Source: a virus (taxonomy: Duplodnaviria; Heunggongvirae; Uroviricota; Caudoviricetes). Taken from it: a stretch of 23,803 bases of DNA. Every line of letters begins with the position of its first letter. The first letter of the stretch is position 1. Positions 1 through 22,468 of this stretch are shown here, in pieces. Location: the IMG/VR virus record IMGVR_UViG_2563366943_000008, positions 1 through 23,803 of that record; one strand, 5' to 3'. The notes beneath the pieces were generated by a model. It did no database searches. It had not been told where the DNA came from and saw only the letters and a list, made by a program, of their open reading frames with translations. Position numbers and translations under genes: made by a program.

Positions 1-1254
1 ATGCTGGAACAAATGGGCATTGCCGCGAAGCAAGCCTCTTATAAATTAGCGCAACTCTCCAGCCGCGAAAAAAATCGTGTGCTGGAAAAAATCGCCGATG
101 AACTGGAAGCACAAAGCGAAATCATCCTCAACGCTAACGCCCAGGATGTTGCTGACGCGCGTGCCAATGGCCTTAGCGAAGCGATGCTTGACCGTCTGGC
201 ACTGACGCCCGCACGGCTGAAAGGCATTGCCGACGATGTGCGCCAGGTGTGCAATCTCGCCGATCCGGTGGGGCGGGTAATCGATGGCGGCGTACTGGAC
301 AGTGGCCTGCGTCTGGAGCGTCGTCGCGTACCGCTGGGGGTTATTGGCGTGATTTATGAAGCGCGCCCGAACGTGACGGTTGATGTCGCTTCGCTGTGCC
401 TGAAAACAGGTAACGCAGTGATCCTGCGCGGCGGCAAAGAAACCTGTCGCACTAACGCTGCAACGGTAGCGGTGATTCAGGACGCCCTGAAATCCTGCGA
501 TTTACCGGCAGGCGCAGTACAGGCGATTGATAATCCTGACCGCGCGCTGGTCAGTGAAATGCTGCGTATGGATAAATACATCGACATGCTGATCCCGCGC
601 GGCGGGGCTGGTTTGCATAAACTGTGCCGCGAACAGTCGACAATCCCGGTGATCACTGGTGGTATAGGCGTATGCCATATTTACGTTGATGAAAGCGCAG
701 AGATCGCTGAAGCATTAAAAGTGATCGTCAACGCGAAAACTCAGCGACCGAGCACATGTAATACGGTAGAAACCTTGCTGGTAAATAAAAACATCGCCGA
801 TAGCTTCCTGTCCGCATTAAGCAAGCAAATGGCGGAAAGCGGCGTGACGTTACACGCAGATGCTGCTGCGCTGGCGCAGTTGCAGACAGGCCCCGCGAAG
901 GTGGTGGCGGTTAAAGCCGAAGAGTATGACGATGAGTTTCTGTCATTAGATTTGAACGTCAAAATCGTCAGCGATCTTGACGATGCCATCGCCCATATTC
1001 GTGAACACGGCACGCAACACTCCGATGCGATCCTGACCCGCGATATGCGCAACGCCCAGCGTTTTGTTAACGAAGTGGATTCGTCCGCTGTTTACGTTAA
1101 CGCCTCTACGCGTTTTACCGACGGCGGCCAGTTTGGTCTGGGAGCGGAAGTGGCGGTAAGCACACAAAAACTCCACGCGCGTGGCCCGATGGGCCTGGAA
1201 GCACTGACCACTTACAAGTGGATCGGCATCGGTGATTACACCATTCGTGCGTAA
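1..1254 (+). CDS. proA: gamma-glutamyl phosphate reductase (glutamate-5-semialdehyde dehydrogenase), complete 417 aa
   Basis: Full-length ORF from ATG at 1 to TAA at 1252-1254. Translation matches enterobacterial ProA from memory along its whole length, with a few substitutions relative to the K-12 sequence as I recall it. High-GC core-genome codon usage. Confidence 0.95.
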
Positions 1255-1368
1255 ATAAAACCGGGTGATGCAAAAGTAGCCATTTGATTCACAAGGCCAT
1301 TGACGCATCGCCCGGTTAGTTTTAACCTTGTCCACCGTGATTCACGTTCGTGAACATGTCCTTTCAGG

Positions 1369-1444
1369 GCCGATATAGCTCAGTTGGTAGAGCAGCGCAT
1401 TCGTAATGCGAAGGTCGTAGGTTCGACTCCTATTATCGGCACCA
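1369..1444 (+). tRNA. thrW: tRNA-Thr (anticodon CGU), 76 nt with encoded CCA
   Basis: Sequence GCCGATATAGCTCAGTTGGTAGAGCAGCGCATTCGTAATGCGAAGGTCGTAGGTTCGACTCCTATTATCGGCACCA folds as a cloverleaf: 7-bp acceptor stem GCCGATA/TATCGGC, D-arm AGCTCAGTTGGTAGAGC, anticodon loop with CGT, T-arm GGTTCGACTCC. Position immediately downstream of proA matches the known thrW locus. Confidence 0.93.
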
Positions 1445-1461
1445 TTCAAACATCTCCCCAA

Positions 1462-1608
1462 GTCTACTAAAGTCTTTCAAAACCCCTTATAATCCGCGTA
1501 TTAAAGCCCCGTTCGTCTTTTGACGTCTACTAAAGTCCCTCAAAATCTACGGTCAGATGGGGGTACTTATGGGGGTATTTGCTGTTCGGTTTAGTGGAGG
1601 TACCCCCA
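1462..1608. promoter_or_regulatory. integrase-proximal repeat cluster (candidate arm-type / operator sites)
   Basis: Two 23-bp direct repeats GTCTACTAAAGTC(T/C)(T/C)TCAAAA at 1462-1484 and 1525-1547 (3 mismatches). TGGGGGTA(C/T) occurs at 1558-1566 and 1570-1578, with an inverted copy GGTACCCCCA at 1599-1608 that overlaps the GGAGG Shine-Dalgarno (1596-1600) of the integrase gene. Confidence 0.45.
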
Positions 1609-1609
1609 A

Positions 1610-2824
1610 GTGAAACTCAATGCCCGTCAAATAGACACAGCCAAGCCAAAAGAGAAGGCTTACAAGCTGGCCGATGGTGGCGGTTTGTATCTCTTGGTAA
1701 AACCTAATGGAGGTAAATACTGGCGACTTAAATATCGTGTAGCTGGTAAAGAGAAGCTATTGGCACTAGGTGTTTATCCTGAGGTTACTCTAGCCGATGC
1801 TCGGGCAAAACGTGAAGATGCGAAAAGAGGTATCGCTGGTGGTATCGATCCGATGGAAGCGAAACGAGAGGAAAAGATTGCCCGGGAAACGCAGTTAAAC
1901 AACACCTTCAAAGATATTGCCCTTGAGTGGCACAGCAGCAAATTAAAAAAATGGTCTGCTGGTTATGCTTCAGACATCCTCGAAGCCTTCAACAAAGATG
2001 TGTTCCCTTACATTGGCAAAAAAACCATCGCCGAAATCAAACCACTTGAACTTCTGAATGTGCTGCGTCGCATCGAGGGGCGCGGTGCTACAGAAAAAGC
2101 CAAAAAAGTGAGGCAACGGTGCGGGGAAGTTTTCCGCTATGCAATAGTCACTGGTCGCGCAGAGTATAACCCTGCACCAGACCTTACTAGCGCGATGCAA
2201 GGCCATGAATCTAATCATTACCCTTTCCTTACAGCCAAAGAATTACCTGATTTTTTCAAGGCATTGTCCAGTTACTCAGGAAGCGCATTGGTTGTTATGG
2301 CGGCTCGTCTACTGATTATCACCGGCTTGCGGACTGGCGAACTACGTGGCGCATTATGGGATGAAATTGATTTCAACAAGGCTATCTGGGAGATACCCGC
2401 TTCACGTATGAAAATGCGGCGGCCTCATATTGTGCCATTGTCTGAGCAGGCTCTTTCGCTTATTGGGAAGATTAGAGAAATAACAGGCAATTACCCTCTT
2501 ATGTTTCCCGGGCGCAATGATCCAAGGAAAACAATGAGCGAGGCCAGCATAAACCAAGTGTTTAAGCGCATTGGCTACGCTGGACGTGTAACTGGTCATG
2601 GGTTCCGGCACACTATGAGTACGATTTTGCATGAGCAGGGCTATAACACTGCGTGGATAGAAACGCAGCTCGCTCACGTTGATAAGAACTCAATTCGTGG
2701 CACATACAACCATGCGCAATATCTGGATGGAAGGCGGGAGATGCTTCAATGGTATGCCGACTATATGGATTCTCTCGAGCATGGCGGAAATGTGGTGCAT
2801 ATGGTGTTTGAAAAACACGCATGA
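1610..2824 (+). CDS. int: tyrosine integrase, P4/IntA-type (site-specific recombinase), 404 aa
   Basis: GTG start at 1610 with GGAGG 10 nt upstream. N-terminal region typical of P4-family integrases (KLADGGGLYLLVKPNGGKYWRLKYR), C-terminal catalytic domain with HGFRHT and HxxR/Y context. Position directly 3' of a tRNA gene is the classic island arrangement. Confidence 0.9.
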   Translation: MKLNARQIDTAKPKEKAYKLADGGGLYLLVKPNGGKYWRLKYRVAGKEKLLALGVYPEVTLADARAKREDAKRGIAGGIDPMEAKREEKIARETQLNNTFKDIALEWHSSKLKKWSAGYASDILEAFNKDVFPYIGKKTIAEIKPLELLNVLRRIEGRGATEKAKKVRQRCGEVFRYAIVTGRAEYNPAPDLTSAMQGHESNHYPFLTAKELPDFFKALSSYSGSALVVMAARLLIITGLRTGELRGALWDEIDFNKAIWEIPASRMKMRRPHIVPLSEQALSLIGKIREITGNYPLMFPGRNDPRKTMSEASINQVFKRIGYAGRVTGHGFRHTMSTILHEQGYNTAWIETQLAHVDKNSIRGTYNHAQYLDGRREMLQWYADYMDSLEHGGNVVHMVFEKHA

Positions 2825-2919
2825 AACAACTGGACAAGTATACAGAGGTTTACTAAAGTATAAGGGAGTAGATTGATAAAAACTCACAGAGGATTGCTAT
2901 TTAACAGTTAGCCATGGAG

Positions 2920-3220
2920 AAGGGCAATCGCTCTTTTAACAACGAAGATGGAATCTTCTACGCAGCTGAAAAGCTGGATGCTCTTTAACAGCCTTTGGTG
3001 CTTTTCTGATGCAGGAAAGAATAGGGATACATGCACCTTTACAATGCATGTAATGATTCATCCATGAGGCTGCGGAGCGCTGACAAAGCGCAATTGCTCT
3101 TTAACATTGATGTGGGCGGGATGGTTCGTCCCGCAGTGACCGATAGATTTCTATCGGGAAACATACAATGATTCAAATATGAATCTACGGCGCTGACAAA
3201 GCGCAATTGCTCTCTTGCCT
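2920..3220. repeat. intergenic repeat/palindrome cluster
   Basis: Perfect 24-bp direct repeat GCGCTGACAAAGCGCAATTGCTCT at 3077-3100 and 3190-3213. Related CTCTTTAACA motifs at about 2929-2948 and 2980-2993. Perfect palindrome CGATAGATTTCTATCG at 3141-3156. Small hairpin GCGGGA-N7-TCCCGC at about 3115-3135. Confidence 0.6.
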
Positions 3221-3542
3221 GCCCACCATGCCCTGAAAAAGGGCGTTCTTTAAAACTACTGGATGTCACGCCTAATAGCGTGATCCTGCCGAAATGCAGG
3301 GTAGCTCTACCCTTGTGGAGCAAACAAACCAAAACAATCTGACTATCTTTTATAAAAGACCGCAATATGTTTTTCATATTGTGGTCTTTGGCGTATTCGA
3401 CATTTGACGCAAATAAAACTCTCGCCATTCGTTGCAGGAGGGGGTTATTGCGTCATTAGTACAGGATATTAATAAATGGCTAATTACAATTCATTAATTC
3501 GTCTCTCTGAAGTTCAAAGGCGAACTGGGTAATGACTCCAAC

Positions 3543-4046
3543 TTATTGATAGTGTTTTATGTTCAGATAATGCCCGATGACTTTGTCATGCAGCTCCACC
3601 GATTTTGAGAACGACAGCGACTTCCGTCCCAGCCGTGCCAGGTGCTGCCTCAGATTCAGGTTATGCCGCTCAATTCGCTGCGTATATCGCTTGCTGATTA
3701 CGTGCAGCTTTCCCTTCAGGCGGGATTCATACAGCGGCCAGCCATCCGTCATCCATATCACCACGTCAAAGGGTGACAGCAGGCTCATAAGACGCCCCAG
3801 CGTCGCCATAGTGCGTTCACCGAATACGTGCGCAACAACCGTCTTCCGGAGCCTGTCATACGCGTAAAACAGCCAGCGCTGGCGCGATTTAGCCCCGACA
3901 TAGCCCCACTGTTCGTCCATTTCCGCGCAGACGATGACGTCACTGCCCGGCTGTATGCGCGAGGTTACCGACTGCGGCCTGAGTTTTTTAAGTGACGTAA
4001 AATCGTGTTGAGGCCAACGCCCATAATGCGGGCTGTTGCCCGGCAT
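3543..4046 (-). CDS. insB: IS1 InsB reading frame (expressed as the InsAB' transposase by -1 frameshift)
   Basis: 167-aa ORF overlapping the 3' end of insA in the -1 frame; sequence matches IS1 InsB. Confidence 0.85.
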
Positions 4047-4240
4047 CCAACGCCATTCATGGCCATATCAATGATTTTCTGGTGCGTACCGGGTTGAGAA
4101 GCGGTGTAAGTGAACTGCAGTTGCCATGTTTTACGGCAGTGAGAGCAGAGATAGCGCTGATGTCCGGCGGTGCTTTTGCCGTTACGCACCACCCCGTCAG
4201 TAGCTGAACAGGAGGGACAGCTGATAGAAACAGAAGCCAC
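3965..4240 (-). CDS. insA: IS1 InsA (transposition repressor / N-terminal part of transposase)
   Basis: 91-aa [43 protein letters not shown], a zinc-finger plus HTH protein matching IS1 InsA. Confidence 0.9.
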
Positions 4241-4304
4241 TGGAGCACCTCAAAAACACCATCATACACTAAATCAGTAAGTTGGCAGCATCACCGGGTG
4301 ATTA

Positions 4305-6410
4305 ATGGCTAAAGCATGGAAAGATGTTATCGCCTCTCCACAGTATCAGGCGTTAGCACCAGAACAAAAAGCGCAGGCTCAGGAGCAATACTTCAATGAA
4401 GTCGTGGCCCCGCAAGCCGGAGAAAGTGTAGCGCAGGCTAAGCAGGCTTTTTATGCTGCCTATCCACTACCATCAACGAATGAAATAGACCGATCCCAAT
4501 CAGCAACTCAAAATATTCAACATACATCATCTGATAATTCTCTTGCGTCAGGGTATGCAAAGTTAGCTACTCAGCAAAGAGAGGGGCTTGAGCGTTCAGC
4601 AGAACAGGGAGCCAGTCTTGGGGCTGCGATGCGCGATGCTATAACAGGCGAAAGCCGAATGACTCCAGAGATGGAGAGACTGCAAAATGTCGACCTTGCC
4701 CCAGAGTTAACCTCACTCAGCATGGGTGCTCTAAAAGCTCGATGGTCTCAACTTTTCGGCTCTGACGCATCTCAGGAAAAGATTCTTCAGAGCATGGGAG
4801 CGAAATTAAGGCAGGATGAGAAGGGTAACACTATCGTTTCCCTGCCATCCGGTGATTATGCTCTGAACAAGCCGGGTTTATCGCCGCAAGACGTGGCATC
4901 GTTTCTGGCTAATGCGCTGGCGTTTACACCAGCGGGCAGGGCTGGAACGGTGCTTGGTGCCATAGGAAAATCAGCAGCTACAGATTTAGCACTACAGGGA
5001 GCCACCAGCCTTGCTGGTGGAGAAGATATTGATCCGTTACAAACGGTAATTTCTGCTGGCATTGGTGGTATTGGTAAGGGGCTGGAAAATACAGCGAGTG
5101 CGGTTTCGAGGGCTGTTCGTGGTGATATGTCGCCTGAAGCAAAGGCTGCTGTCAACTTTGCATCGGAAAGAAATCTGCCGTTAATGACCAGTGACATGCT
5201 GAAAGATAAAACCTTTATGCAGAGTCAGGCTCAGACATTAGGCGAAAGAGTTCCTTTTTTTGGAACCGGTAAGAATCGGCTGAATCAACAACAAGCACGA
5301 GAAAATTTAGTCAGAACATTTAGCGATGGTCTGGGTGGCATTTCTGATAAACAGCTTTATGAATCTGCGACTAAAGGGCAACAAAAATTCATTGAGGCAG
5401 CAGGAAAGCGATATAACCGCATAATTGACGCTATGGGGGATACCCCTGTCGATCTCTCAAACACGGTAAAAGCTATCGACAATCAGATTGCCGTGTTAAG
5501 CCGCCCGGGCAAATCTCAGGATAGAGCCGCGGTAAAAGTCTTGCAGCAATTTAAAGACGATATCACCAGCGGACCAAATGACCTGCGTCTGGCGAGGGAA
5601 AACAGAACCGATCTTCGAAAGCGATTTATGGCGTCATCTGACACTGTTGATAAAGATACGCTCCAGAAAGCCAGCGATATTATCTACAAGGCATATACGG
5701 CGGATATGAAAAAAGCCGTAGCCAAAAATCTTGGAGCAGACGAAGCCATTAATATGGCAAGGGTTGATCGGTCATGGTCTAAATTCAATGACATGATGGG
5801 AAGAACGCGCGTTCAAAAGGCAATAGCCAGCGGTAAGGCCACGCCTGAGGATGTAACAAAACTCGTTTTTAGCCAAAGCCCATCAGAACGTTCTCAGCTT
5901 TACAGGCTTCTGGATGACAATGGTAGGCAAAACGCACGAGCAGCCATAGTTCAGAATGCTGTAGATAAGGCGACTGATCCGTCTGGAAATATCAGTGTTG
6001 AGAAGTTTATTAATGCGTTACACCGGAACAGGAAGCAATCAGCAACTTTCTTTAAAGGCGTACATGGAAAGGAACTGGACGGCGTTATTAAATACCTCAA
6101 CGATACAAGACACGCGGCAAAAGCGAACGTTCAAAACTTAAATGGTCAGCAGCTTTATGGATTGTTAGTTGGTGGTGGCATCATAAACGCAGCAGTATTA
6201 GCGGGGATGCTAAAAACGGCTGCGTTTGTTGTTCCTGCTGCTGGTGCCGTAGGCGGAGCAGCGAAGGCATACGAAAGCCCTGTTATACGAAATGCCTTGT
6301 TACGTCTGGCAAATACGCCAAAAGGTAGCACAGCATATGACAGAGCGATCAGTACGGTCACACAATCGCTCACCAGAGTCGCACAGGCATCACAAAAAGA
6401 AGCTCAATAA
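4305..6410 (+). CDS. large Ala/Gln/Lys-rich helical protein with C-terminal Gly/Ala-rich hydrophobic segment (function unknown; tape-measure-like or pore-forming-toxin-like)
   Basis: 701-aa ORF with consistent coding character. First ATG lies 9 bp after the IS1 end, preceded by an in-frame TGA and no Shine-Dalgarno, so the native N-terminus and promoter may be missing. About 37-residue hydrophobic stretch LYGLLVGGGIINAAVLAGMLKTAAFVVPAAGAVGGAA near the C-terminus. Confidence 0.5.
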   Translation: MAKAWKDVIASPQYQALAPEQKAQAQEQYFNEVVAPQAGESVAQAKQAFYAAYPLPSTNEIDRSQSATQNIQHTSSDNSLASGYAKLATQQREGLERSAEQGASLGAAMRDAITGESRMTPEMERLQNVDLAPELTSLSMGALKARWSQLFGSDASQEKILQSMGAKLRQDEKGNTIVSLPSGDYALNKPGLSPQDVASFLANALAFTPAGRAGTVLGAIGKSAATDLALQGATSLAGGEDIDPLQTVISAGIGGIGKGLENTASAVSRAVRGDMSPEAKAAVNFASERNLPLMTSDMLKDKTFMQSQAQTLGERVPFFGTGKNRLNQQQARENLVRTFSDGLGGISDKQLYESATKGQQKFIEAAGKRYNRIIDAMGDTPVDLSNTVKAIDNQIAVLSRPGKSQDRAAVKVLQQFKDDITSGPNDLRLARENRTDLRKRFMASSDTVDKDTLQKASDIIYKAYTADMKKAVAKNLGADEAINMARVDRSWSKFNDMMGRTRVQKAIASGKATPEDVTKLVFSQSPSERSQLYRLLDDNGRQNARAAIVQNAVDKATDPSGNISVEKFINALHRNRKQSATFFKGVHGKELDGVIKYLNDTRHAAKANVQNLNGQQLYGLLVGGGIINAAVLAGMLKTAAFVVPAAGAVGGAAKAYESPVIRNALLRLANTPKGSTAYDRAISTVTQSLTRVAQASQKEAQ

Positions 6411-6429
6411 CTGGTTAGCCATGGATGGC

Positions 6430-7044
6430 TTAGATATCTCTGCTGTCTCCATTAGGAAATAAAAGATAATATGGATTTGCCTTTCTTGCTCTCCTTGCTT
6501 CACCCGGATACCTGTTAGTCAGTAGCTTGCATAATGAGCAGAGAACAACACTCAAGAAAATTCCGAATGAGAAGATCAATATCTCACCAAAAATCAATGG
6601 CGATATTAAATTTTCAGGATTTAATGATAAGTCAATGTTAAAAACATATTGAGCAATACCAGTAAGTATCAATAATATAATCCCTATGGAATACATTGCT
6701 GTTTCCCAAACATCAGACAGTCTATTTTTGAATTGTTCGCTGGAGTAGTAGTTTGTTATAAAGTCAGAAAAATCACTCTCATATGCATCATCTTTAGGTG
6801 ATGTTAGAAATCCTCTGTCTCTCCATACCTTCTCCCAATTAGTCGATTCTTTTTTTAAGGAAAAATAAATATGTATTCCCAAAAGGATAGCCAAAATTGG
6901 TGTTAGCTCTAAAAAATAGAATGTTATGGAATAAATAATACTGCCATGTTCAAACTCATCTGGGACTATCATGTATGCACAAAAATAAATTGAAAAGTAC
7001 ACCATGCAGATAGTTAGCAATTCTTTAGTATCTTTTCTGCTCAC
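6430..7044 (-). CDS. integral membrane protein, 4 predicted TM helices (candidate immunity / abortive-infection membrane protein)
   Basis: 204-aa ORF with GTG start at 7044 and AAGGGGG Shine-Dalgarno upstream. Four long hydrophobic helices with a charged central loop. Very AT-rich compared with the adjacent 701-aa gene. Convergent with that gene, with a 19-bp gap containing a palindrome. Confidence 0.6.
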   Translation of the reverse strand: MSRKDTKELLTICMVYFSIYFCAYMIVPDEFEHGSIIYSITFYFLELTPILAILLGIHIYFSLKKESTNWEKVWRDRGFLTSPKDDAYESDFSDFITNYYSSEQFKNRLSDVWETAMYSIGIILLILTGIAQYVFNIDLSLNPENLISPLIFGEILIFSFGIFLSVVLCSLCKLLTNRYPGEARRARKANPYYLLFPNGDSRDI

Positions 7045-7498
7045 ACCAACCCCCTTTAGCGTTGTTTAGAATGGCAATCATCATATATCCAAGACATGGC
7101 ATTTGGTACATAGCTTGGGTCGGGATTTCAAGTCCGCTCCCAGTTGATGGGGCCGTTACAGTACGCGCATATCCGCTTTATGTGAAACAGGAAGATTTTT
7201 CTGATATCACTGCCACAGCAAAACACCAATTTCGTGACCAGTACGCGCGCGAGGGGTATCAGTTGCAAAATTTTTTGCAACTGCGTCCGACCAGTACGCA
7301 CACGATGGCGGGGGATACCATAAAACTGTTCTCTACATGAGACAGAGTGGTGGTGATGTGTTGATTATCGGCGTATATGCGCACAGGACGCGCTATGACG
7401 ATGTTTTATGCGGGTACACCAATCACATGTATCTGGTGTGATAAATCGCGTTACATGACCTCTCATGTTGTGCTGGTGGTTATCACGACTTTCTGAAT

Positions 7499-7542
7499 CT
7501 GGCCTTTGCCTGATATTTTGCGACAAGTACGCGCGCGTAGCA
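7499..7542. repeat. dispersed repeat with alternating CG core (copy A)
   Basis: CTGGCCTTTGCCTGATATTTTGCGACAAGTACGCGCGCGTAGCA. Partial relatives at 7231-7253 (TTTCGTGACCAGTACGCGCGCGAG) and 7283-7303 (CCGACCAGTACGCACACGA). Confidence 0.6.
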
Positions 7543-7565
7543 TCGACAGCATACACATTGGATAT

Positions 7566-7787
7566 TCATTTTGTGACCAATGCGATAAGTAGCGGGATAA
7601 GAATTGATAAAATCAACAGGCCGATGATCCACTTTTGATTTTCACTGGCCTTATCTCTATTTTCATCAATCTTATCAATAATTCGACGCTCCAATCCGTG
7701 CATATCACCGCGAATGGCAATCATCTCATTGCGAACATCAGGGAAGTGGTTGGCTTGATGTTCAATGTGTGGCGTTCTGCCTTTCAT
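7566..7787 (-). CDS. small protein with N-terminal coiled-coil and single C-terminal TM helix (XhlA/holin-like architecture)
   Basis: 73-aa ORF; C-terminal WIIGLLILSILIPLLIALV is a clear TM segment. Architecture resembles small prophage membrane proteins. Not verified by homology. Confidence 0.4.
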   Translation of the reverse strand: MKGRTPHIEHQANHFPDVRNEMIAIRGDMHGLERRIIDKIDENRDKASENQKWIIGLLILSILIPLLIALVTK

Positions 7788-7866
7788 ATCTGATCCTCAC
7801 CTATCGTCACTACCTGCTGGTGTATAAAGGTATTGGCCCAAGCAACTTTCCAATGGGCACTCATGT

Positions 7867-8322
7867 TTATACGCTGACCTTACAATCAATCACTGCTTTT
7901 AGCTTTTCAGCATTGCTTCCCTGACGCTTCCACGCGCTGTAAATATCTTTATCCCACGCTTTACCAGCTTTTGTTTGATAGCCTGCTTCATTGATCCGTT
8001 CAGCTATCACACGCCCATTATCAAATCCCTGTTGGATGGTATCGGCAATGATCTTTATAACTGCCGTTTCGTTATATGGTTTTGGTGGGATGTTCGGCTT
8101 TCCGGCAATAAGCGACGCAGCGGCTTTTTCCATGCGCTCCACCAGCCCAAGCATTCGTGAATCAATAGACTTTTCCGGCTGCCCCAGCTTCATGCGAATC
8201 GCATCAACAAGCCAGGAGGTTTTATCTCCTCCAGAAGCGAGAACAGACCGATTAAACTCATCCTGCAATTCAGATGGGATGCGGAACGCGACCAGATTAG
8301 ATTTGCTCATTGCAAAGACCAT
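7867..8322 (-). CDS. putative ribbon-helix-helix DNA-binding regulator with C-terminal extension
   Basis: 151-aa ORF. N-terminus NLVAFRIPSELQDEFNRSVLASGGDKTSWLVDAIRMKL fits a beta-strand / helix / helix RHH pattern. A palindromic operator-like sequence lies immediately upstream. An alternative start at 8310 (MSKSN) is possible. Confidence 0.5.
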   Translation of the reverse strand: MVFAMSKSNLVAFRIPSELQDEFNRSVLASGGDKTSWLVDAIRMKLGQPEKSIDSRMLGLVERMEKAAASLIAGKPNIPPKPYNETAVIKIIADTIQQGFDNGRVIAERINEAGYQTKAGKAWDKDIYSAWKRQGSNAEKLKAVIDCKVSV

Positions 8323-8339
8323 ATCAGTGAGTAATATCC

Positions 8340-8545
8340 ATACAGTATACCACTGTATAACACTGTTATACGCTCAAATATCAGCCAGAAAATAACGGAC
8401 CAATCACAAATCTATCGCTGTGTTGTTGGTTCAGAGCTGGGCTGTGTTGGTTCAAAATGAGTTGATGTTGGTTCAATATTTCAGAAAAAACACAATAAAA
8501 ACAACAATCTTTACAAATTGAACCAACTGAACCAACTGAACCAAC
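8340..8545. promoter_or_regulatory. divergent control region with phased iterons
   Basis: Palindrome GTATAAC-ACT-GTTATAC at 8355-8371. Three direct copies of TGTTGGTTCA at 8424, 8445 and 8467 (spacing 21-22 bp). AT-rich spacer. Three tandem inverted copies TGAACCAAC at 8519, 8528 and 8537. TATAAT at 8563-8568 just before the 8582 start. Confidence 0.55.
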
Positions 8546-8581
8546 ACCTTTTTGCTTATCTATATAATCTGAGAGGCAGAA

Positions 8582-8863
8582 ATGATAAGGGACAGGAAAG
8601 CTGAAGAGCTGGAGTCAAAAGGGCTATACCGGAGAGCTGCCGCACGATGGATGGAAGTCATGCTGTTATGCACCGAGGACGATGATCGGGAATGGATAAA
8701 GCGCCGCCGTGAAACGTGTCTGGAGAACGTGAAGCGCCCGCCCGTGAAGGTTGAGGAATTTGGCGACCTGCATAAAGCTGTTACCGAAACGCAACACCGC
8801 ATGGGGATAGCGCAACCGAACGGTAACGCCTTCCGGTTAAATGGCGGCAAGAGGCAAAGGTAG
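8582..8863 (+). CDS. small transcription-activator-like protein (PerC-family-like, tentative)
   Basis: 93-aa ORF MIRDRKAEELESKGLYRRAAARWMEVM. The N-terminal motif resembles PerC/Pch-type prophage regulators as recalled from memory. Directly downstream of the iteron region. Confidence 0.45.
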   Translation: MIRDRKAEELESKGLYRRAAARWMEVMLLCTEDDDREWIKRRRETCLENVKRPPVKVEEFGDLHKAVTETQHRMGIAQPNGNAFRLNGGKRQR

Positions 8864-8888
8864 ACCACCAGAGGGAAATCATCCTCTG

Positions 8889-8934
8889 GCTGGCGGTTTC
8901 TGGTATTTCGGGACAAGTACGCGCGCGCGTAGCA
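8889..8934. repeat. dispersed repeat with alternating CG core (copy B)
   Basis: CTGGCGGTTTCTGGTATTTCGGGACAAGTACGCGCGCGCGTAGCA. Same orientation as copy A, core GACAAGTACGCGCGCG(CG)TAGCA identical apart from one extra CG unit. Confidence 0.6.
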
Positions 8935-9160
8935 CCCAATCGGTGAGGAAATAGCGGCGACCTGAATGGTCAAAATCACAACGCAGCTATCCCCGTAAGC
9001 AGCGCTTAACGGAATAGCAGTAACCTGAATCCAGTGGGGAGGGGGTAGTCAAATCTCTACAGCCCTGACTATCCGGGACTGCCCGCCCCATCGTTTTTTT
9101 ATACCCGCGAAAAATGAAATTTAATCCGGGCGTGTTTCATTCTTCCAGAGGGTATGACGT

Positions 9161-9346
9161 ATGACACCACGCGAAATAGCCTTATTGACCATCGCCAAAC
9201 TTGAGCACGGAGGCCACCAGCTTACACAGGCAGATCAACGGGAGATAGAACGATCAGTTAATGCCGATATAGCCCGGCGCGACAGGTTCCGCGAAATGAT
9301 GCGAGCACCTGCCTACCAGTGGAAGAAGCCAGCGCCGCGCAGGTAG
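9161..9346 (+). CDS. hypothetical small protein (61 aa)
   Basis: ORF with a GAGGG Shine-Dalgarno-like sequence upstream; no recognisable motif. Confidence 0.3.
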   Translation: MTPREIALLTIAKLEHGGHQLTQADQREIERSVNADIARRDRFREMMRAPAYQWKKPAPRR

Positions 9347-9466
9347 ATATGGGATTATTCCACATGTAACTTATGCGTATTAAGCAAATTTCCTTTATTC
9401 ACCTTTACAGAATTGTGAGTACGTCAGTATCGTTATCCTTCCGATTCGCATTTATTCAGGATTTGC

Positions 9467-10009
9467 ATGTACCAGCTAAAGATAACCATCCGAGACAGCA
9501 AACCACCTATATGGCGGCGTGTGCTGGTTCCAGAGCAAATCCCCTTTAGTAAACTTCATGCCGTGATCCAGTTAGCTTTTGGCTGGAATGACGAACACCT
9601 GTATATGTTCGAGAAAGGGCGTAAAGGTGATCCAGGTAGCGAGTATCGCGTATGGGGTGAGGATGAAAGCATGGGTAACGCGGCAATCACGCCACTATGG
9701 GCGGCGCTCCAGAATGAGGGTGACAAGCTGGTTTACACGTATGACTTTGGCGACTGGTGGGATTGCGTCATTGTGCTGGAGAAGCAAACACACGATACGA
9801 GTAATCAGCCCATTAGCTGCCTGCGTGGGAAAGGCACCACCCCGGCGGAAAACTCAGGCGGCTTGCATGGTTACAATGAATTGCTATTACAGGCCAGAGA
9901 GTCTGATAATCCTGAGCAGGCCGAGATCCACAATTTCCTGATGCTGGATATTGAACGCCGGGTTTACGACCTGAGCCGCATCAACGACAGATTGCAGGCT
10001 ATTAACTGA
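9467..10009 (+). CDS. pRiA4b ORF-3-like family protein (tentative)
   Basis: 180-aa ORF containing YTYDFGDWWDCVI, which resembles the YxYDFGDxWxHxI signature I recall for the plasmid pRiA4b ORF-3-like domain. Confidence 0.45.
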   Translation: MYQLKITIRDSKPPIWRRVLVPEQIPFSKLHAVIQLAFGWNDEHLYMFEKGRKGDPGSEYRVWGEDESMGNAAITPLWAALQNEGDKLVYTYDFGDWWDCVIVLEKQTHDTSNQPISCLRGKGTTPAENSGGLHGYNELLLQARESDNPEQAEIHNFLMLDIERRVYDLSRINDRLQAIN

Positions 10010-10361
10010 CCCGCATGTATTCACCTGATATTGCGTTGTCAGCGCCGCCAGTATCGCGCATAACAGCGCACTGACCGGGTAAACCGTAGCGCACGACCGT
10101 TGCGTTAGTATCACCGCCGCGCCGTATCTGGCGCGATTCATACACTGTCACCCGCTCAAGCAGTCCACCAGCAACCATGCTTTCCAGTGTGCGCCGGGTT
10201 GATTCGAGCTGGTGACGCTTATCGAACGACACCATGCCATGAAGCAGGTAGGCCACACCCGACACATCGAACGGCGGCGCACCAATCTCACCAGTCACCC
10301 ATTCGAGGTTATCCGGTTCAAAGTAGCTAAGTATCTCTTTTTTGCGGCTGGTCATTCTCAT
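10002..10361 (-). CDS. hypothetical protein (119 aa)
   Basis: ORF convergent with and overlapping the 3' end of the 9467-10009 gene by 8 bp; AAGGA-like Shine-Dalgarno upstream of the ATG at 10361. Function unknown. Confidence 0.35.
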   Translation of the reverse strand: MRMTSRKKEILSYFEPDNLEWVTGEIGAPPFDVSGVAYLLHGMVSFDKRHQLESTRRTLESMVAGGLLERVTVYESRQIRRGGDTNATVVRYGLPGQCAVMRDTGGADNAISGEYMRVS

Positions 10362-10480
10362 GGCTGGCTGATTCCTTATTGTGGGATAGCACTATCATAC
10401 AATAAGTGGGTTAAAGGGAGAGCGTTACCGCCTGATATGCTGTATGAATAACAACCAAATTTCAGGGGCGGAAAAAGATA

Positions 10481-10501
10481 TGGGGGTACTTTTGGGGGTA
10501 T
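10481..10501. repeat. second copy of the TGGGGGTAC-N3-TGGGGGTAT motif pair
   Basis: TGGGGGTACTTTTGGGGGTAT at 10481-10501 versus TGGGGGTACTTATGGGGGTAT at 1558-1578: same orientation, one mismatch. Confidence 0.7.
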
Positions 10502-10562
10502 CTATAAAAAATGAACAATAAAAAAGGCAACAAAAACAAAGCTTATCGCCTATGTGTATTGT

Positions 10563-10582
10563 TCCTATTATCGCACAATCAA
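10563..10582. other. degenerate direct repeat of the tRNA-Thr 3' end (candidate attR core of module 1)
   Basis: TCCTATTATCG-CAC-AATCAA aligns with tRNA 3' end TCCTATTATCGGCACCATTCAA (1428-1449): 11/11 identical, then gapped similarity. Lies about 60 bp beyond the second TGGGGGTA pair. Confidence 0.45.
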
Positions 10583-11182
10583 GAAAATCAATAACTTAGC
10601 TTAACTTCTCTAAGAAATTGTATCTTCTGTTATCACTTACAAACGCCTATACGTTGTTATGGGCTTTGGTAGTGTAACACGTATGGGCGAGTAGTTCCCA
10701 GGCTCAACCTCGTAACAAGTTCCTTTGAAGCTGGAAGACGTGCCACCGTCTCTAAACCTTCTACCAAAACTCTTAGCAAGATGTTCCACACCTGGCGCGG
10801 TGTCCAATGATGCTACACGTCGTGAGACGTTGCAGAGGATAAACAGGCTAAATGATGGGAAGAGTTTTAAGTGCAATAGTGGATCAAAGCCCACCTCTTC
10901 AAAACCTAACTTGATCGGGAAAGAATCAAGCTCTAGCACGGTTTCGTCCACCGGAGTACAACGGGTGCCTGATAAGAGAAGAACTGCTAAGACTTCATAG
11001 CTTTTGTGAAAAAGCCCTTTTAGTGGATACGCCTACGGCGCTTATTTTTTGGGGTAGCCCATCAAAGGCGCTTTATGGCTCCTATTGTCTTGAAAATGTA
11101 TCTTTACTTGTATTGTGTTTTATGCGTAGTCTCCCTGTGTAGTATGTAACTTGTTAATTTTCATATGAATACAGAGGCACAC

Positions 11183-11341
11183 GATGAAAAACATTGCAGC
11201 TATCAAACGTAATAACCGCAAGATTCACGCTCGTAAGTTCCTGTCTACGCCAGAAGGAAAAGCCTGGCTAGAGCGTAAACAGAGAGAGAACGAAGAAAGA
11301 AAACTCCTTAATGAGTTGAAATGGCTTAGAGAGGATTTCTG
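11183..11341 (+). CDS. hypothetical small basic protein (52 aa)
   Basis: ATG at 11183 with GAGG 6-9 nt upstream; translation MKNIAAIKRNNRKIHARKFLSTPEGKAWLERKQRENEERKLLNELKWLREDF. Below the ORF-track size cutoff, so found by eye. Coding status uncertain. Confidence 0.25.
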
Positions 11342-12153
11342 AAAATCTCCAGAACGCAACAGGACGCATTCTAACGCTATTTTCATTGCTTGGTATAGGG
11401 ATGTATAGGTGATGTGTGTTTAATGCGTCTGTGCGCTTGTTTTGTGCCTTATTTTGCATTTTCATAATGCAGAAGAGAACACGGAAAACCTTAAAATTAA
11501 TTATTGGGGTATTTAAGGGTATTTTCAGGTGATTTAAGGGTATTAAACTTGATTTAATTGATTAAAATATAAACAGATAGTTGTGTATCTTATTGATTTA
11601 TAAGGTTATTTTTAAATAAAGGTAAATAAAAAATAAATAGCCATAAATAGCTATAAATACATCTAAATACCTATATCCCTTCCCTTATGGCTAGATTGCG
11701 AGAGGTGCTTAACGCGATTTTCAGCGCCCCCCGATCTGGAAAATCCAGAATCCCCAAATATCAGCAAGGAATTTTCTTGCGTAATCAACATCGTTTTTAC
11801 CTATTAAATCATTACACAGAAAGCCTTTCTGTAATGTCTCTCACTAAACTTTCACTAAACACGAGAATGATCGGTTTTATGTCGGATCAGATGCTAGAAA
11901 CAGCACCACGTCTCACAAGGACTGTAAGCGATGAAACCAGTGTTTATGCGGGTGCAGGTCAAAATATAGGCCAAAATCAATTTAACATAATAAACGTAAT
12001 ATGCACTAAGGAACACATAGAACGCCTTGAGTTGATGTATCAGGGGAAAAGTGATGGATTTTTTACGTAGGAGCACGAGAGGGCTTCTGTTGACTTTTGT
12101 ATGCTATGAAACATAATTAAAGGTTTTTTTGTTTTTATTGTGTGATGTAGTGG

Positions 12154-13127
12154 ATTACACAGGGGAATAGATTAAATGGTGTTCTGTTTATACAGGTTTA
12201 TTTGTTAGATCAACAATTTGGCATTTCTAAACAGATGTTTGAACGTTGCCAAATGTCTTGACAACACAAGAAAAGGGCTTGCTATGCCACGCATTACACG
12301 AAATAAGGCTGTAAAAACAAAATAAATTTTAAAATTTGCACAAACGAGAAAACTCGTTAAGAAACAAGCAGAACAATTTTTAGCCAACAATTTCTGATGG
12401 TGCTCTGTAGGCCGCACTACACAAGGATTTGCGAAAGTGATGTAAAAGTGAAGAAAGTAAGAATTGCACTTTTAAGCTACTTTTCATTGAATTTTTAGTA
12501 TGGAATTACACAGGAATAAGTTAGGGATATTCTATGATTTACACAGGGAATATAGGGGATTATGGCACACACATAGAAAGGCATTACACAGAGTGAGTGC
12601 TATGTGATGATTGGTAGTAACGGTAGGTCATAGTGAGCTAGGGGGTAGGTCACTGTGAACTACAATAAGACTATTAATAAAACTATATTAGATTATTAAT
12701 TAGATCATAATAATAATATTCTTTATATCTATATATATGATCTTTTGCCTTCCGGCGTTAGCTTCACTCTCTGGCAAGCAGCCTTACTCCGCTACCTTTC
12801 GGGCTTCGTGGCTGGCCCGTTCCGCTCACACCGAAAGCAAAGCGTTACTTTCTTCGTGTAACTTCGTTGGCGGTAACGCCCACGAAGAAATCTATTGCGC
12901 TGTGCGCAGTAAGAGTAATCACCTAACCAATCATACTGATTGCTTATGTGTTAACTCTCTCTAACTCTTAATTACCCTCCTACATTTAATAACTCTGTTA
13001 TTCTCTGTAGTTGTGTAATTACTCGAAGAGAGAGCGGCTAAAGCTCAATTACACTCTGCTTTCCTCGTGTAATTTCACTAAGCCTCAATACAATTTCACT
13101 TCCTACATTCTGTAGTCGTGTAATTGT
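12154..13127. repeat. iteron field flanking an AT-rich tract and GC-rich core (origin-like region)
   Basis: Direct copies of (A/T)TTACACAGG(G/A)AATA at 12154, 12505, 12538 and 12583, plus variants at 12293 and 12417. Inverted copies CGTGTAA(T/C) at 12855, 13012, 13066 and 13117. 17-bp repeat TCTGTAGT(T/C)GTGTAATT at 13004 and 13110. GGTAGGTCA repeats at about 12625 and 12649. Extremely AT-rich tract at about 12660-12745. Confidence 0.5.
12745..12915. ncRNA. candidate structured RNA or single-strand initiation element (strand undetermined)
   Basis: GC-rich patch inside AT-rich DNA. Hairpin CTTCGTTGGCG-GTAA-CGCCCACGAAG (12862-12887; 10 of 11 positions pair, GNRA-type tetraloop). Hairpin CGGGC-N10-GCCCG (12800-12819). 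Long-range complementarity CTTACTCCGC (12783-12792) with GCGCAGTAAG (12904-12913). The overlapping 75-aa ORF has a non-protein-like sequence. Confidence 0.25.
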
Positions 13128-13761
13128 TTTCGGTGGAAAAGCCAGAGGCGACACCGAAAGAGAATTCTGATCTTATTAATCTTATCTATCTTAGTTAATC
13201 TTCTTACTTATCTTACTTACTTTATCTACTTTATTATTAATAATAGCTTTATAAGCTCTCTGTGTAGCTCTCTGACGCAAGAAACAGCATTCAGGAAGGG
13301 AATCACCTTAGAAAAGGTGTTCTTTGCGTCATAATGTGTTTTATGAAGGATTCAGAGGTGTTTCATAACAGGAATGTATAGAGAATACTTTAGGTAATTA
13401 AAAATAAGGGGTCTAAATGCTTCTCTAACAGCATTAAGCAGGGTAGGGAATGGAAACGCATTGCCTACATATAATAAACTCACTACAGGGCTTTACAGGG
13501 CGTTTTATAAAGCGACTCTCTGTTTTATATCTACAATCACCTTTTCATATACCTAACAAATACAAAATAAGCCCCTTAAATAAGCCTCTGGCGAGCTAAA
13601 CAGACATTACATAAGAGAATGTATTGCTTTTATCAAAACTTCGTTAGAACGCGTTTTAGAGCGTTTTAGCGGATAATGAAGAATAGCACTACACAGAAGA
13701 GCACGAATTGCTAAGACAAATTATAACATGCTGAAAAAGATCGATTTTTTCGAAAAGGGTA

Positions 13762-13790
13762 TTGACAAATGTTTCTTTATATGTAATAAT
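13762..13790 (+). promoter_or_regulatory. sigma70-like promoter upstream of the rightward small-gene array
   Basis: TTGACA at 13762-13767, 16-17 bp spacer, TAATAA(T) at 13784-13790. The -35 is embedded in GGGTATTGACA, sharing the GGGTATT motif seen elsewhere in the element. Confidence 0.4.
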
Positions 13791-13903
13791 AGGTATTAGA
13801 GGGACAGAAAAACATTCTTCTCTAAATAATCAAAATCAATGCACTTTGAAGCCGTCAGGCTTGCAAGGTGTTTTATTTCTTTTAACTGAATAAGGAGTTT
13901 TTT

Positions 13904-14092
13904 ATGAAATGGTTTACACCGGAGCACGTCGTAAAGGCATTTAAAAAAGGTGAGCTTACACGCCACCAAATAGTAATGAATCGTAATATGGCAAGGAGTC
14001 GAGGTTATCCAGAGCGAGCAGCTTGCTTCAATGAAGCACTCAAGATTATTGATGAACTAAGAAAAAATGAAAAAGAATCTGAAACAGAGTAA
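13904..14092 (+). CDS. hypothetical small protein (62 aa)
   Basis: ATG preceded by TAAGGAG Shine-Dalgarno at optimal spacing; first gene downstream of the promoter. Confidence 0.5.
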   Translation: MKWFTPEHVVKAFKKGELTRHQIVMNRNMARSRGYPERAACFNEALKIIDELRKNEKESETE

Positions 14093-14111
14093 AGAAGAGA
14101 AGGAGAAAACT

Positions 14112-14282
14112 ATGAGCGAAGCTACAGAAAAGAAAAGACAACCACGCACTTGCTTTCATATTCCTGATGAAGTATTTCAGGTGTTGTTTAAAGAAGCCAG
14201 AAGTAAACGTATCACTGTTACAGATTACATTCTTGATATGTTGAAAAGAGAGGCTGAAACACTCTCAAATAAAAGCAAGTGA
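14112..14282 (+). CDS. putative ribbon-helix-helix (CopG/Arc-like) DNA-binding protein, 56 aa
   Basis: ATG at 14112 with GAAGGAG upstream. RTCFHIPDEVFQVLFKEARSKRITVTDYILDMLK fits strand-helix-helix. The ORF track starts earlier (14067) at an upstream in-frame ATG lacking a Shine-Dalgarno. Confidence 0.5.
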   Translation: MSEATEKKRQPRTCFHIPDEVFQVLFKEARSKRITVTDYILDMLKREAETLSNKSK

Positions 14283-14335
14283 TTTTTATCACCATAGTAG
14301 CGCCATAGAGCGTGATTACATCAAGGAGATTTTTA

Positions 14336-15028
14336 ATGATTAACCAACTAACTTTTACAAAACACTATGACACGTTTGATAATATATCAAAGATTTATTC
14401 TGATAAATTCCCTCAAGGAAAAGATTTAGATCTATTACATATTGTGCTTTATTTTCGATTCCTTAGTTATCAGGAAAACAACCTTAATTGTTATGAAAGT
14501 CACGAAACATTAGCTAAGATTTTTAAGTCTTCACCATCAACAATTAAACGTAAGATAAACGATCTTAAAGAGATGGGATTATTAGAAACATCCCCACATC
14601 CTGATCCGTATATTTCATCTTTGATTTACAATGCTCTCCCTCTCACAGATGCACATATTACTCCCCCAGGAGAATCATCACTCTCTGATCTTTCTGAGGC
14701 AGAAGAAGCACAGGAACAACCTAAAGGCCATAAACAGCCTTCTTTTGATGTTCTTGATGATGATTGGGATACGCCTTTACCCTGGGAGACGGAAGAAACA
14801 CCTGTTTCATCAAGTGAAAAGGTAGCTAATGATAATGAGGAGGATGTGTTAGAGAATTTTGCCTCTCTTATCATCCAGGAGAAACACAAAAGAACAGGAG
14901 GGGCATCATTTATAGAATTTGCAAATTCACTAGCTTGTAGATACGGGCTAAAACGACCAAATGGTATTGAGGCATATTTTTCTAAGCATTACCCAAATGT
15001 ATACGAAGACTTTGATATTCCCTTTTAA
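14336..15028 (+). CDS. putative winged-helix DNA-binding protein with acidic C-terminal tail (replication-initiator / replisome-organiser-like)
   Basis: ATG at 14336 with AAGGAG 9 nt upstream (ORF track starts at 14312). N-terminal segment ETLAKIFKSSPSTIKRKINDLKEMGLLE is a typical HTH. C-terminal third is strongly acidic (DDDWDTPLPWETEETP...EEDVLENF). Confidence 0.45.
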   Translation: MINQLTFTKHYDTFDNISKIYSDKFPQGKDLDLLHIVLYFRFLSYQENNLNCYESHETLAKIFKSSPSTIKRKINDLKEMGLLETSPHPDPYISSLIYNALPLTDAHITPPGESSLSDLSEAEEAQEQPKGHKQPSFDVLDDDWDTPLPWETEETPVSSSEKVANDNEEDVLENFASLIIQEKHKRTGGASFIEFANSLACRYGLKRPNGIEAYFSKHYPNVYEDFDIPF

Positions 15029-15044
15029 AAAGTAAGGAGGACTA

Positions 15045-15323
15045 TTGATACAGTATTTAATAAAAAGCAAAGTAGACAGAATTCAGTGTAACGACACAGG
15101 AAAACGCATCTACGAAACGCTTGCTTACCTCTATAAAGGAAAGCCAACACCGCTAAAATATAGCGATGTGTTACATCGAGCAGGTTGCTCTGAGTCAGGT
15201 TTAAAATTCTGGCTGAAACAGCTATCAAATTTCGGTGTTATTGAAATGAAAGAGCTGTCTTTCTCTACATTTAATCTCAAAAGACTAGATAAAGAAATAG
15301 AATTCATCTATTCCACTCTCTAA
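15045..15323 (+). CDS. small HTH-type DNA-binding protein (92 aa)
   Basis: TTG start with very strong TAAGGAGG Shine-Dalgarno 6 nt upstream. Contains a probable HTH (YSDVLHRAGCSESGLKFWLKQL). Confidence 0.45.
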   Translation: MIQYLIKSKVDRIQCNDTGKRIYETLAYLYKGKPTPLKYSDVLHRAGCSESGLKFWLKQLSNFGVIEMKELSFSTFNLKRLDKEIEFIYSTL

Positions 15324-15455
15324 AATCTCTCTATGTAATTAAAATATAAAAGGAAAACATTATTATGATAGTAGCTATGTATTGGTTATTGTTCTTTCTC
15401 ACGTTAGAAGCATATTTCGGGGTGTTTTCCTTTAAAAGAAAAGGAAAAGTAAATT

Positions 15456-15866
15456 ATGGCAAAAAGAAAAAACAACGTTGTTAAGAAAATCGGTGATTCA
15501 GCTTCTCTTCTAAGTAAACCTAAATCTATTCTAAAACGTAAAGACTTTAAAGAGCTAGTTACGCTCACCAAGCATAATAGCGCCCCTGGCGAATGGAAAA
15601 CAGAGATCATAGAACATTCTCCCTCTGTGCCTTGTGGAGATGAATATATCGCCTTACAAGAAATCTTATCTTCAACACCTGGCGTGTTCTGGAAACCTAA
15701 AAAAAGAAAAGAGTATATCGTTGATAGCTCTGATTTACGCAAATACCAGATTTTAGGATTTGAAGATTATAATCACTACGTTGGTTATCTCGCCACAAAT
15801 GGCCTAAATAATTTAGTTCCTGAATTCCAGATTTTAGATAATGCAGATCACTATGGAGACTTTTAA
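15456..15866 (+). CDS. hypothetical basic protein (136 aa)
   Basis: ATG with AAGGAAAAG upstream. Lys/Arg-rich N-terminus. Stop codon is 1 nt before the start of the next gene. Confidence 0.5.
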   Translation: MAKRKNNVVKKIGDSASLLSKPKSILKRKDFKELVTLTKHNSAPGEWKTEIIEHSPSVPCGDEYIALQEILSSTPGVFWKPKKRKEYIVDSSDLRKYQILGFEDYNHYVGYLATNGLNNLVPEFQILDNADHYGDF

Positions 15867-15867
15867 T

Positions 15868-16206
15868 ATGAACAAAAACACGTATGACACAATTTACTCA
15901 CTAATTAATTATTATGAGGATGATTACCTCCTGCCTTTAAACCGCGCTGAACTTGAAGCATACAAAGAAAACACGCCAGCGGCACTAAATGAGGCGTTTA
16001 AACACTGGGATTTAGCTGTGAATGCCTTTGAGCACCTCTCTAAGCGTGTAGAGATGCTCTGTAAGCGCGAAAACGCATACCTGACAGCCGATCAGGTATG
16101 GGAATTATCAAACTGGATAGAAGATATTGAATCTGATGTTCGCTATGTGGGAGATGGACTTGTTGAACTAGCGCAACGCTTAGGCGCTACTATCACAGAA
16201 GAATAA
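15868..16206 (+). CDS. hypothetical acidic protein (112 aa from ATG 15868; in-frame alternative starts at 15841 and 15853)
   Basis: GGAG 9 nt upstream of ATG 15868; translationally coupled to the preceding gene. Confidence 0.45.
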   Translation: MNKNTYDTIYSLINYYEDDYLLPLNRAELEAYKENTPAALNEAFKHWDLAVNAFEHLSKRVEMLCKRENAYLTADQVWELSNWIEDIESDVRYVGDGLVELAQRLGATITEE

Positions 16207-16235
16207 AAAAAGCAACAAAAAAGTTGTAAAATATC

Positions 16236-16264
16236 TTGACATTCCATCTATTGTATGTTAATAT
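16236..16264 (+). promoter_or_regulatory. near-consensus sigma70 promoter
   Basis: TTGACA (16236-16241), 17-bp spacer, TAATAT (16259-16264). Confidence 0.5.
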
Positions 16265-16270
16265 AATTAT

Positions 16271-16491
16271 ATAGGGGTGATTATTTTTCCTTTATTGGTT
16301 CGATATTAAAAATTCTTCCTGTCATTAAAGGGGAGTAAAATCTCCGCTCCCCGCTTCTTCTCCTCCTTAAGTAAATACTGTGCCATTATACCTCTTTGTT
16401 ATGCATACATCTTGGAGTATGCATAACATAGGGTAATTACATAGGTATGAGTTAATAAAAGGCGGCTTTAAATGCTGCCTTTTATTTTGCC
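16271..16491 (+). ncRNA. candidate small RNA or structured 5' leader (about 220 nt)
   Basis: Lies between the promoter at 16236-16264 and a hairpin plus T-tract at 16457-16488 (AAAAGGCGGC-TTTAAAT-GCTGCCTTTT-ATTTTG). No ORF longer than about 11 codons on this strand. Contains hairpin GGGGAG-N11-CTCCCC (16330-16352), pyrimidine tract CTTCTTCTCCTCCTTA (16355-16369), and inverted repeat TTATGCATA / TATGCATAA (16399-16426). Confidence 0.3.
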
Positions 16492-17122: not shown

Positions 17123-17140
17123 TAAAAGGAATAATAATAA

Positions 17141-22461: not shown

Positions 22462-22468
22462 ATTGCGT

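Follow-up and report, generated by a model that had tools for sequence, protein, structure and literature searches.

The stretch of DNA analysed here (hereafter the window; 23,803 nucleotides) is 100% identical to the chromosome of Escherichia coli isolate AF3 (NZ_OZ547117.1), where it leads from proA and thrW to a group of integrated elements lying upstream of yagU. The tRNA-Thr (CGU) gene thrW, recognised by ARAGORN, Rfam tRNA and RefSeq at 1369-1444 on the plus strand, is the attachment site of an island occupying positions ~1445 to ~10500. The tRNA was the only Rfam hit in the window at gathering thresholds, and no repeat of the tRNA 3' end of at least 12 nt was found as an att site. The island integrase, a tyrosine recombinase with an arm-binding domain, is encoded at 1610-2824 (plus strand; Pfam Arm-DNA-bind_3, Phage_int_M and Phage_integrase). 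Arm-type repeats (ATGGGGGTA..., following the pattern ATGGGGGTACTT(A/T)TGGGGGTAT) are located at 1557-1578, just upstream of the integrase gene, and at 10480-10501, with a degenerate version at 11503-11524; they may mark the island ends as candidate integrase sites. Downstream of the integrase gene, a 242-bp stretch (3003-3244) that is absent from strain CUWW11 contains two copies of the same 24-nt repeat (GCGCTGACAAAGCGCAATTGCTCT; 3077-3100 and 3190-3213), both accompanied by a small GC hairpin. It is spanned by a 129-aa 'hypothetical protein' ORF (3039-3428, minus strand), which has no Pfam or PHROG match and may not be a real gene.

At 3476-3527 lies the 5' remnant of a 67-aa AlpA-family gene (plus strand, identified by translation), reduced to 17 codons and one nucleotide (MANYNSLIRLSEVQRRT), the reading frame of which now ends at a TAA within the IS1 terminus (3530-3532). 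The intact 67-aa allele, found in SCU-172 and CUWW11, matches Pfam Phage_AlpA (PF05930) at 7e-20, and the 17 codons left in the window are too few for a Phage_AlpA or HTH_17 domain. The remnant is followed by a 768-bp IS1A element at 3528-4295 on the minus strand, recognised by its terminal repeats, reading frames, profile match and RefSeq annotation. Its IRR end (3528-3550) and IRL end (4273-4295) carry terminal inverted repeats, GGTGATGCTGCCAACTTACTGAT and GGTAATGACTCCAACTTATTGAT, that match at 18 of 23 positions. The insA and insB' frames are on the minus strand, the transposase CDS (3543-4240) containing an A6C frameshift motif at 3983-3989, which is canonical position 307; RefSeq likewise annotates a programmed frameshift. 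Against NCBIfam transpos_IS1, the 91-aa frame corresponds to profile positions 1-81 and the 167-aa frame to positions 75-199.

The initial annotation of this DNA had reported that the sequences flanking IS1 are not direct repeats, and this holds: the 9-bp flanks, GGCGAACTG on the left (3519-3527) and GGGTGATTA on the right (4296-4304), coincide in 4 of their 9 bases, and a search for direct repeats of 5-12 bp, shifted ones included, was negative within 20 bp of both IS1 ends. The window copy therefore lacks the 8-9 bp target duplication of the IS1 family. Immediately beyond the right flank begins a complete 701-aa gene (4305-6410, plus strand), followed on the minus strand by a 204-aa ORF (6430-7044) with a weak SieA-like match (PHROG 7745, E=4e-4), which occupies what we take to be the position of sieA after gene 16 on the P22 map.

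The remainder of the window includes ~3.5 kb of AT-rich DNA (~10400-13900; 35-37% GC from 11 kb onward) with only one annotated gene, of 159 nt; no Rfam family was found in this tract, and its ORFs at 11687-12070 and 12737-12964 have no PHROG match. Beside yagU, from ~13900 to 23803, lies a second small integrated element of ~35-44% GC, which encodes a replication-initiator-like HTH protein, a major head protein (PHROG 29), tape-measure-like and tail-fibre/baseplate-like proteins, and its own integrase (minus strand). This element, possibly a capsid-forming one of the satellite type, has a related copy in UTME-10. Its tape-measure-like gene is interrupted by an IS2 of 1331 bp (19368-20698) with an intact 5-bp duplication, TAAAC; in contrast to IS1, this IS2 is a simple insertion. 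SCU-172 lacks 6,413 bp to the left of IS2 (window 12955-19367), another IS-adjacent deletion.

The 701-aa gene and its start

The 701-aa protein (RefSeq WP_001570980.1) is a DNA ejection (DNA transfer) protein of the P22 gp16 family. It matches PHROG 770 at 4e-159 over residues 19-700 (profile positions 3-667 of 668), and tblastn alignments to gene 16 of Sf6, ST64T and L cover residues 1-700. Since no match was obtained in Pfam or NCBIfam, the protein was assigned to its family by PHROGs, tblastn and synteny. The 14-7-20-16 gene order typical of the family is absent from the window, where the three partner genes are deleted, and is present in the intact islands, which carry DUF2824, P22_gp7 and Inj_translocase genes upstream. 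In contrast to the situation in a P22-like prophage, the 701-aa gene sits in an integrase/alpA/primase island, and its gene 20 partner is deleted in AF3.

It had been proposed that a rearrangement removed the original 5' region of this ORF, leaving an internal or fortuitous ATG. Only two features speak for this reading, the closeness of the ATG (4305) to the IS1 end, 9 bp away, and the in-frame stop just upstream (TGA, 4299-4301); both were confirmed, and the reading itself has practically no chance of being correct. The right flank of IS1 consists of the last ten bases of a P22-gene-20-like gene (Pfam Inj_translocase, 3e-83), of which the last three codons, GGT GAT TAA, remain at 4297-4305 on the plus strand (identified from the CUWW11 CDS and Pfam), and its TAA overlaps the 701-aa ATG by one base (TAATG). 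The upstream TGA is native sequence inside this gene 20 3' end, in a different reading frame. In CUWW11, which has no IS1 at this site, the gene-20-like CDS (10544-12010) and the 701-aa CDS (12010-14115) share the same one-base overlap; the junction reads ...CACTATGGGGTGATTAATGGCT, where one copy of GGGTGATTA immediately precedes the same ATG, and the encoded protein is the identical WP_001570980.1. Sf6 gene 13, the homologue of P22 gene 16, also starts at the equivalent methionine: it overlaps gene 12 by one base, shares the start-region sequence (...CACTATGGGGTGATTAATGGCTAAAGCATGGAAAGATG) and the N-terminus MAKAWKD, although the 701-aa protein is only ~33% identical to Sf6 gp13 overall. PHROG 770 is moreover matched from profile position 3. 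The homologues in CUWW11 and Sf6 are thus not longer at the N-terminus and, given the identical protein and start in CUWW11 and the same junction in Sf6, the ORF is complete; on these sequence comparisons the truncation idea is wrong and already refuted. The IS1-free locus agrees with the window on the right flank and differs from it on the left.

The absence of a Shine-Dalgarno sequence, also claimed initially, was not confirmed. The 9 bp before the ATG contain an SD-like GGGTGAT whose predicted duplex with the 16S rRNA 3' end has an energy of -10.7 kcal/mol (native context, -12.9; consensus SD, -13.6 kcal/mol), a value equalled by only 1.65% of random 20-mers of the window. The motif owes its survival to its position within the duplicated 9 bp.

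The original insertion and the block missing from AF3

Among complete E. coli genomes, only AF3, SCU-172 and MSB1_4I carry IS1 at the exact window site. In SCU-172 and MSB1_4I, the entire island as far as gene 20, alpA included, is intact, and two inverted IS1 copies are present ~24 kb apart (SCU-172 L004 15627-16394 and L002 12005-12772; MSB1_4I L008 24382-25149 and L007 3005-3772), each with 0-1 mismatch to the window IS1. The flanks in SCU-172 read gene 20-GGGTGATTA-IS1-GAATAAACG-oxidoreductase and LysR-GAATAAACG-IS1-GGGTGATTA-gene 16, and those in MSB1_4I are the same, so that the 9-bp duplications GGGTGATTA and GAATAAACG are reciprocally exchanged between the inverted copies. The ~24-kb inversion carries gene 16, the second element, yagU, ykgJ, ecpCDE and ykgMOR. 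An empty LysR/oxidoreductase site with a single GAATAAACG exists in two genomes at 100% identity and in 90 at a coverage of at least 80%; together with the sister-strain flanks, it identifies both 9-mers as genuine duplications split by the inversion. The reciprocal exchange is that of an IS1-flanked chromosomal inversion, whether by homologous recombination or by duplicative inversion, whereas AF3 itself keeps the uninverted gene order. Undoing the inversion would yield two ordinary IS1 insertions, each with a 9-bp duplication. Because the insertion of SCU-172 and MSB1_4I reconstitutes the 9-bp GGGTGATTA in this way, the window IS1 lost its target duplication secondarily, its IS1A membership not being in doubt; its right flank is the surviving right-hand copy of the original duplication.

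In the first step of the proposed history, IS1 would have inserted at the gene 20/16 overlap in an ancestor that AF3 shares with SCU-172 and MSB1_4I, duplicating GGGTGATTA. As these 9 bp were duplicated, neither protein sequence would have been changed: gene 20 received a TAG stop (completed by the first IS1 base) in place of TAA, while both the SD-like GGGTGAT and the ATG of gene 16 were retained. The gene-20-like gene of SCU-172 (L004 14213-15627) shows a separate lesion, a 7-nt loss in a CAGCCAG repeat near its 3' end that shifts the frame of the last ~10 codons. Since the C-terminus of P22 gp20 is essential (PMC10883804), the ejection module of the sister strains was probably defective already.

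Positions 1-3528 of the window correspond to SCU-172 L004 1417-4944 with 2 mismatches, the window IS1 corresponds to L004 15627-16394, and positions 3523-12954 align with L002 12001-21449 at 99.76%. The block missing from AF3 is SCU-172 L004 4944-15626, 10,683 bp immediately to the left of IS1, and none of the AF3 matches is a full-length copy of it; of the 5,426 complete E. coli genomes, 245 contain at least 80% of the block. Its genes are the remaining part of alpA, antA/B, DUF4222, ash, one hypothetical gene and several small ORFs, together with an icd-type early gene, a TOPRIM/DUF927 primase gene, DUF2824 (gp14-like), P22_gp7 and the gene-20-like gene. The breakpoint falls in codon 18 of the alpA-like gene. 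The left flank GGCGAACTG, which in SCU-172 runs on into alpA as GTTATAGCAAAG..., is a new junction from the deletion and not a duplication; GTTCAAAGGCGAACTGGGTAATGACTCC is the junction k-mer of the AF3 allele. As read from these alignments, the loss in AF3 is a net deletion, which appears to be recent, since its flanks are nearly identical. The IS1-mediated deletion suspected in the initial annotation is upheld in this form, AF3 lacking 10,683 bp that sister strains with the same IS1 keep; in the recommended comparison, the IS1-free island of CUWW11 has alpA, the primase gene and the gene-20-like gene.

We consider that the locus records two successive events, a clean IS1 insertion followed by an IS1-linked loss of 10.7 kb in the AF3 lineage (probability about 0.85). 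The junction IS1-GGGTGATTA-ATG is identical in SCU-172 and MSB1_4I, which retain the 10.7 kb, and the lost segment is contiguous with the IS1 end, with a collinear junction, as in an adjacent deletion. In this second step, an IS1-dependent intramolecular event would have joined the IRR end to codon 18 of the alpA-like gene, with a net loss of 10,683 bp that includes the left copy of the GGGTGATTA duplication. A false junction between the alpA remnant and IS1 could also stem from an assembly misjoin across repeated IS1, an element found at 40 or more places in AF3, and repeats are the usual sites of misjoins. Such an artefact is very improbable: AF3 is recorded as a closed chromosome, collinearity with relatives extends over the remainder of the locus, and a misjoin would relocate the unique 10.7-kb segment, of which no full-length copy was found for AF3.

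Possible routes to the deletion

The path that we infer for the deletion is transposase-driven intramolecular replicative transposition, the IS1 'adjacent deletion', which is favoured over IS1-IS1 recombination even though the end product is identical under the transposase and homologous-recombination routes. The classical gal/chl deletions, attributed to Reif and Saedler in 1975, are reportedly IS1-mediated adjacent deletions. AF3 likewise retains the IS, shows one junction unchanged relative to its relatives and another that is new and collinear, has lost the duplication copy on the deleted side, and acquired the insertion before the deletion. There is no difference in kind from the classical case, except that the pre-deletion state of AF3 is seen only in inversion-bearing sister strains. 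IS-adjacent deletions have also been described in the Lenski lines, where the IS insertion preceded the deletion in 14 of 14 LTEE cases, and both adjacent deletion and IS-IS recombination are documented sources of missing duplications (PMC11708052).

The LysR-side IS1 of AF3 also lacks a duplication, with 31 bp missing on one side (22 native bp plus one GAATAAACG). As a loss of 31 bp is hard to obtain by IS-IS recombination, transposase-driven adjacent deletion appears to have been active in the AF3 lineage. All four IS1 copies within ~55 kb of AF3 are without target duplication, including those located within ~30 kb downstream of the window (L006 10984-11751, 7512-8279 and 28671-29438); a missing IS1 duplication is not unusual in this genome. 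Given the presence of IS1 at no fewer than 40 places, IS1-linked rearrangement is pervasive in the AF3 lineage. One of the further copies, shared with SCU-172, truncates ecpC (TAAAACTTA / GGATGATGG), and one truncates a gene beside lacY (CGGGACACC / CAGGAATGG).

A deletion in one step is given somewhat less than an even chance. A two-step variant of the favoured transposase-driven explanation is possible, at a lower probability. Here the LysR-proximal IS1 would duplicatively invert into alpA, directly creating the order alpA'-GGCGAACTG-IS1-GGGTGATTA-gene 16, and an adjacent deletion from the same IS1 would then remove the 22 bp, one GAATAAACG, the other IS1 and the 10.7-kb segment. Worked Shapiro-type products of this route give both AF3 junctions exactly, IS1 orientation included, in two events, and explain the two junctions absent from AF3 as both sides of one SCU-172 IS1 copy; the SCU-172 arrangement can itself arise from a single IS1 by duplicative inversion. 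However, two independent adjacent deletions from an uninverted ancestor would require an equal number of events, no intermediate of the two-step route was found, and the IS1 change G34A would have to post-date the AF3 split. G34A is present in the LysR-side IS1 of SCU-172 and MSB1_4I and absent from both AF3 copies; as a discriminator between the rearrangement paths it is uninformative without its age.

Homologous recombination is rather unlikely, at slightly lower odds again. It would require a second IS1 in alpA, in direct orientation and duplicating GGCGAACTG, followed by RecA-dependent IS1-IS1 recombination that deletes the 10.7 kb and one IS1. The substrates are good, with IS1 at 40 places or more in the genome and local copies only 0-1 mismatch apart; the same process is a plausible origin of the sister-strain inversion and a recognised cause of missing duplications (PMC11708052). 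Yet the predicted junction IS1-GGCGAACTG-GTTATAGC occurs in no genome or metagenome contig, and the 31-bp loss at the other IS1 of AF3 is not reasonably explained. The intermediate junction k-mer, GCAGCATCACCGGCGAACTGGTTATAGC, is common to the recombination model and the duplicative-inversion route, and neither the 5,426 complete E. coli genomes nor the metagenome contigs yielded the intermediate, the contig scan giving no match to the intermediate junction (IS1 IRL end, GGCGAACTG and the 3' part of alpA) or to the AF3 junction. An uninverted ancestor with both duplications intact, which CACTATGGGGTGATTAGGTAATGACTCC together with uninverted gene order would mark, was not observed either. By whichever route, and with adjacent deletion preferred, the result is a routine deletion scar left by IS1 in an island that is decaying, an ordinary and well-known kind of event with nothing new in the scar itself.

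The probable remnant gene and the intact thrW islands

With the deletion, the 701-aa gene would, we infer, have lost its upstream operon and its translational coupling to gene 20. The initial annotation had raised the possibility that its expression now depends on IS1 read-out; the promoter in question would be an outward-facing or hybrid one located at the IRL end. IS1 insertions are said to create hybrid promoters in some contexts, a report credited to Prentki et al. in 1986, and the SD-like GGGTGAT and the ATG are intact; read-out nonetheless appears improbable. On the plus strand, a sigma-70 consensus scan revealed nothing promoter-like within or at the IS1 end; the only promoter-like site at the adjacent end is the insA promoter, on the minus strand and pointing away from the ORF. 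A hybrid promoter built on the IRL hexamer TTGGCA (4283-4288) was rejected, its -10 falling on or after the ATG, which would give a transcript without the start codon. Furthermore, gp16 does not work without a cognate gp20 (PMC10883804), the gene for which has been lost. With its partners lost and a polar IS1 upstream whose own promoter faces away, the gene, intact but deprived of operon, coupling and cognate partners, is most likely a silent, non-functional remnant; some translation from read-through transcripts is possible, the SD-like site having survived.

The island as a whole can be judged against its intact copies, found in SCU-172 (L004 3026-15626 and L002 12773 onward) and CUWW11 (L005 646-14115), the latter with the order integrase, alpA, antA/B, DUF4222, ash, icd-like, primase, gene-20-like and 701-aa gene. 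The intact thrW island combines a P4/PICI-like early region, with a TOPRIM/DUF927 or DUF5906 primase, with a P22-type ejection module (DUF2824/gp14-like, P22_gp7, Inj_translocase/gp20 and gp16-like), followed by the weakly SieA-like ORF. The integrase, alpA and alpha-type primase characteristic of P4-like satellites are all present in SCU-172 and CUWW11, and AF3 keeps only the integrase; the AF3 island has thus probably lost its excision activator and replication functions. No capsid, portal or terminase gene is annotated in the thrW island, nor are psu, sid or delta genes in SCU-172 L004 or CUWW11 L005.

Like P4-like satellites and Gram-negative PICIs, the island is integrated at a tRNA gene, encodes a tyrosine integrase, AlpA, ash/icd-like genes and a large TOPRIM primase, and has its genes in one orientation. 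It differs from them in its late region, which is a P22-type gp14/gp7/gp20/gp16 ejection module, and no description of a satellite carrying ejection proteins was found in the full-text literature. Tentatively, and at odds well below even, the thrW island could be a previously undescribed type of phage satellite that equips helper particles with DNA-delivery proteins of its own.

The window provides a worked example in which a seemingly missing target duplication is recovered from sister genomes, and a caution that an ORF abutting an IS end is not necessarily truncated. It also illustrates island decay, in which a precise IS1 insertion was followed by the loss of genes for regulation, replication and ejection, after which an integrase and a solitary but intact gene 16 homologue remain. 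Of broader interest are the intact relatives, representing a common E. coli thrW element in which a P4-like early region is joined to P22-type ejection genes. SieA-type exclusion targets gp16 and gp20 (PMC10883804), and if the island is indeed such a satellite, its ejection proteins might get past this type of exclusion, with the AF3 copy representing a dead remnant.
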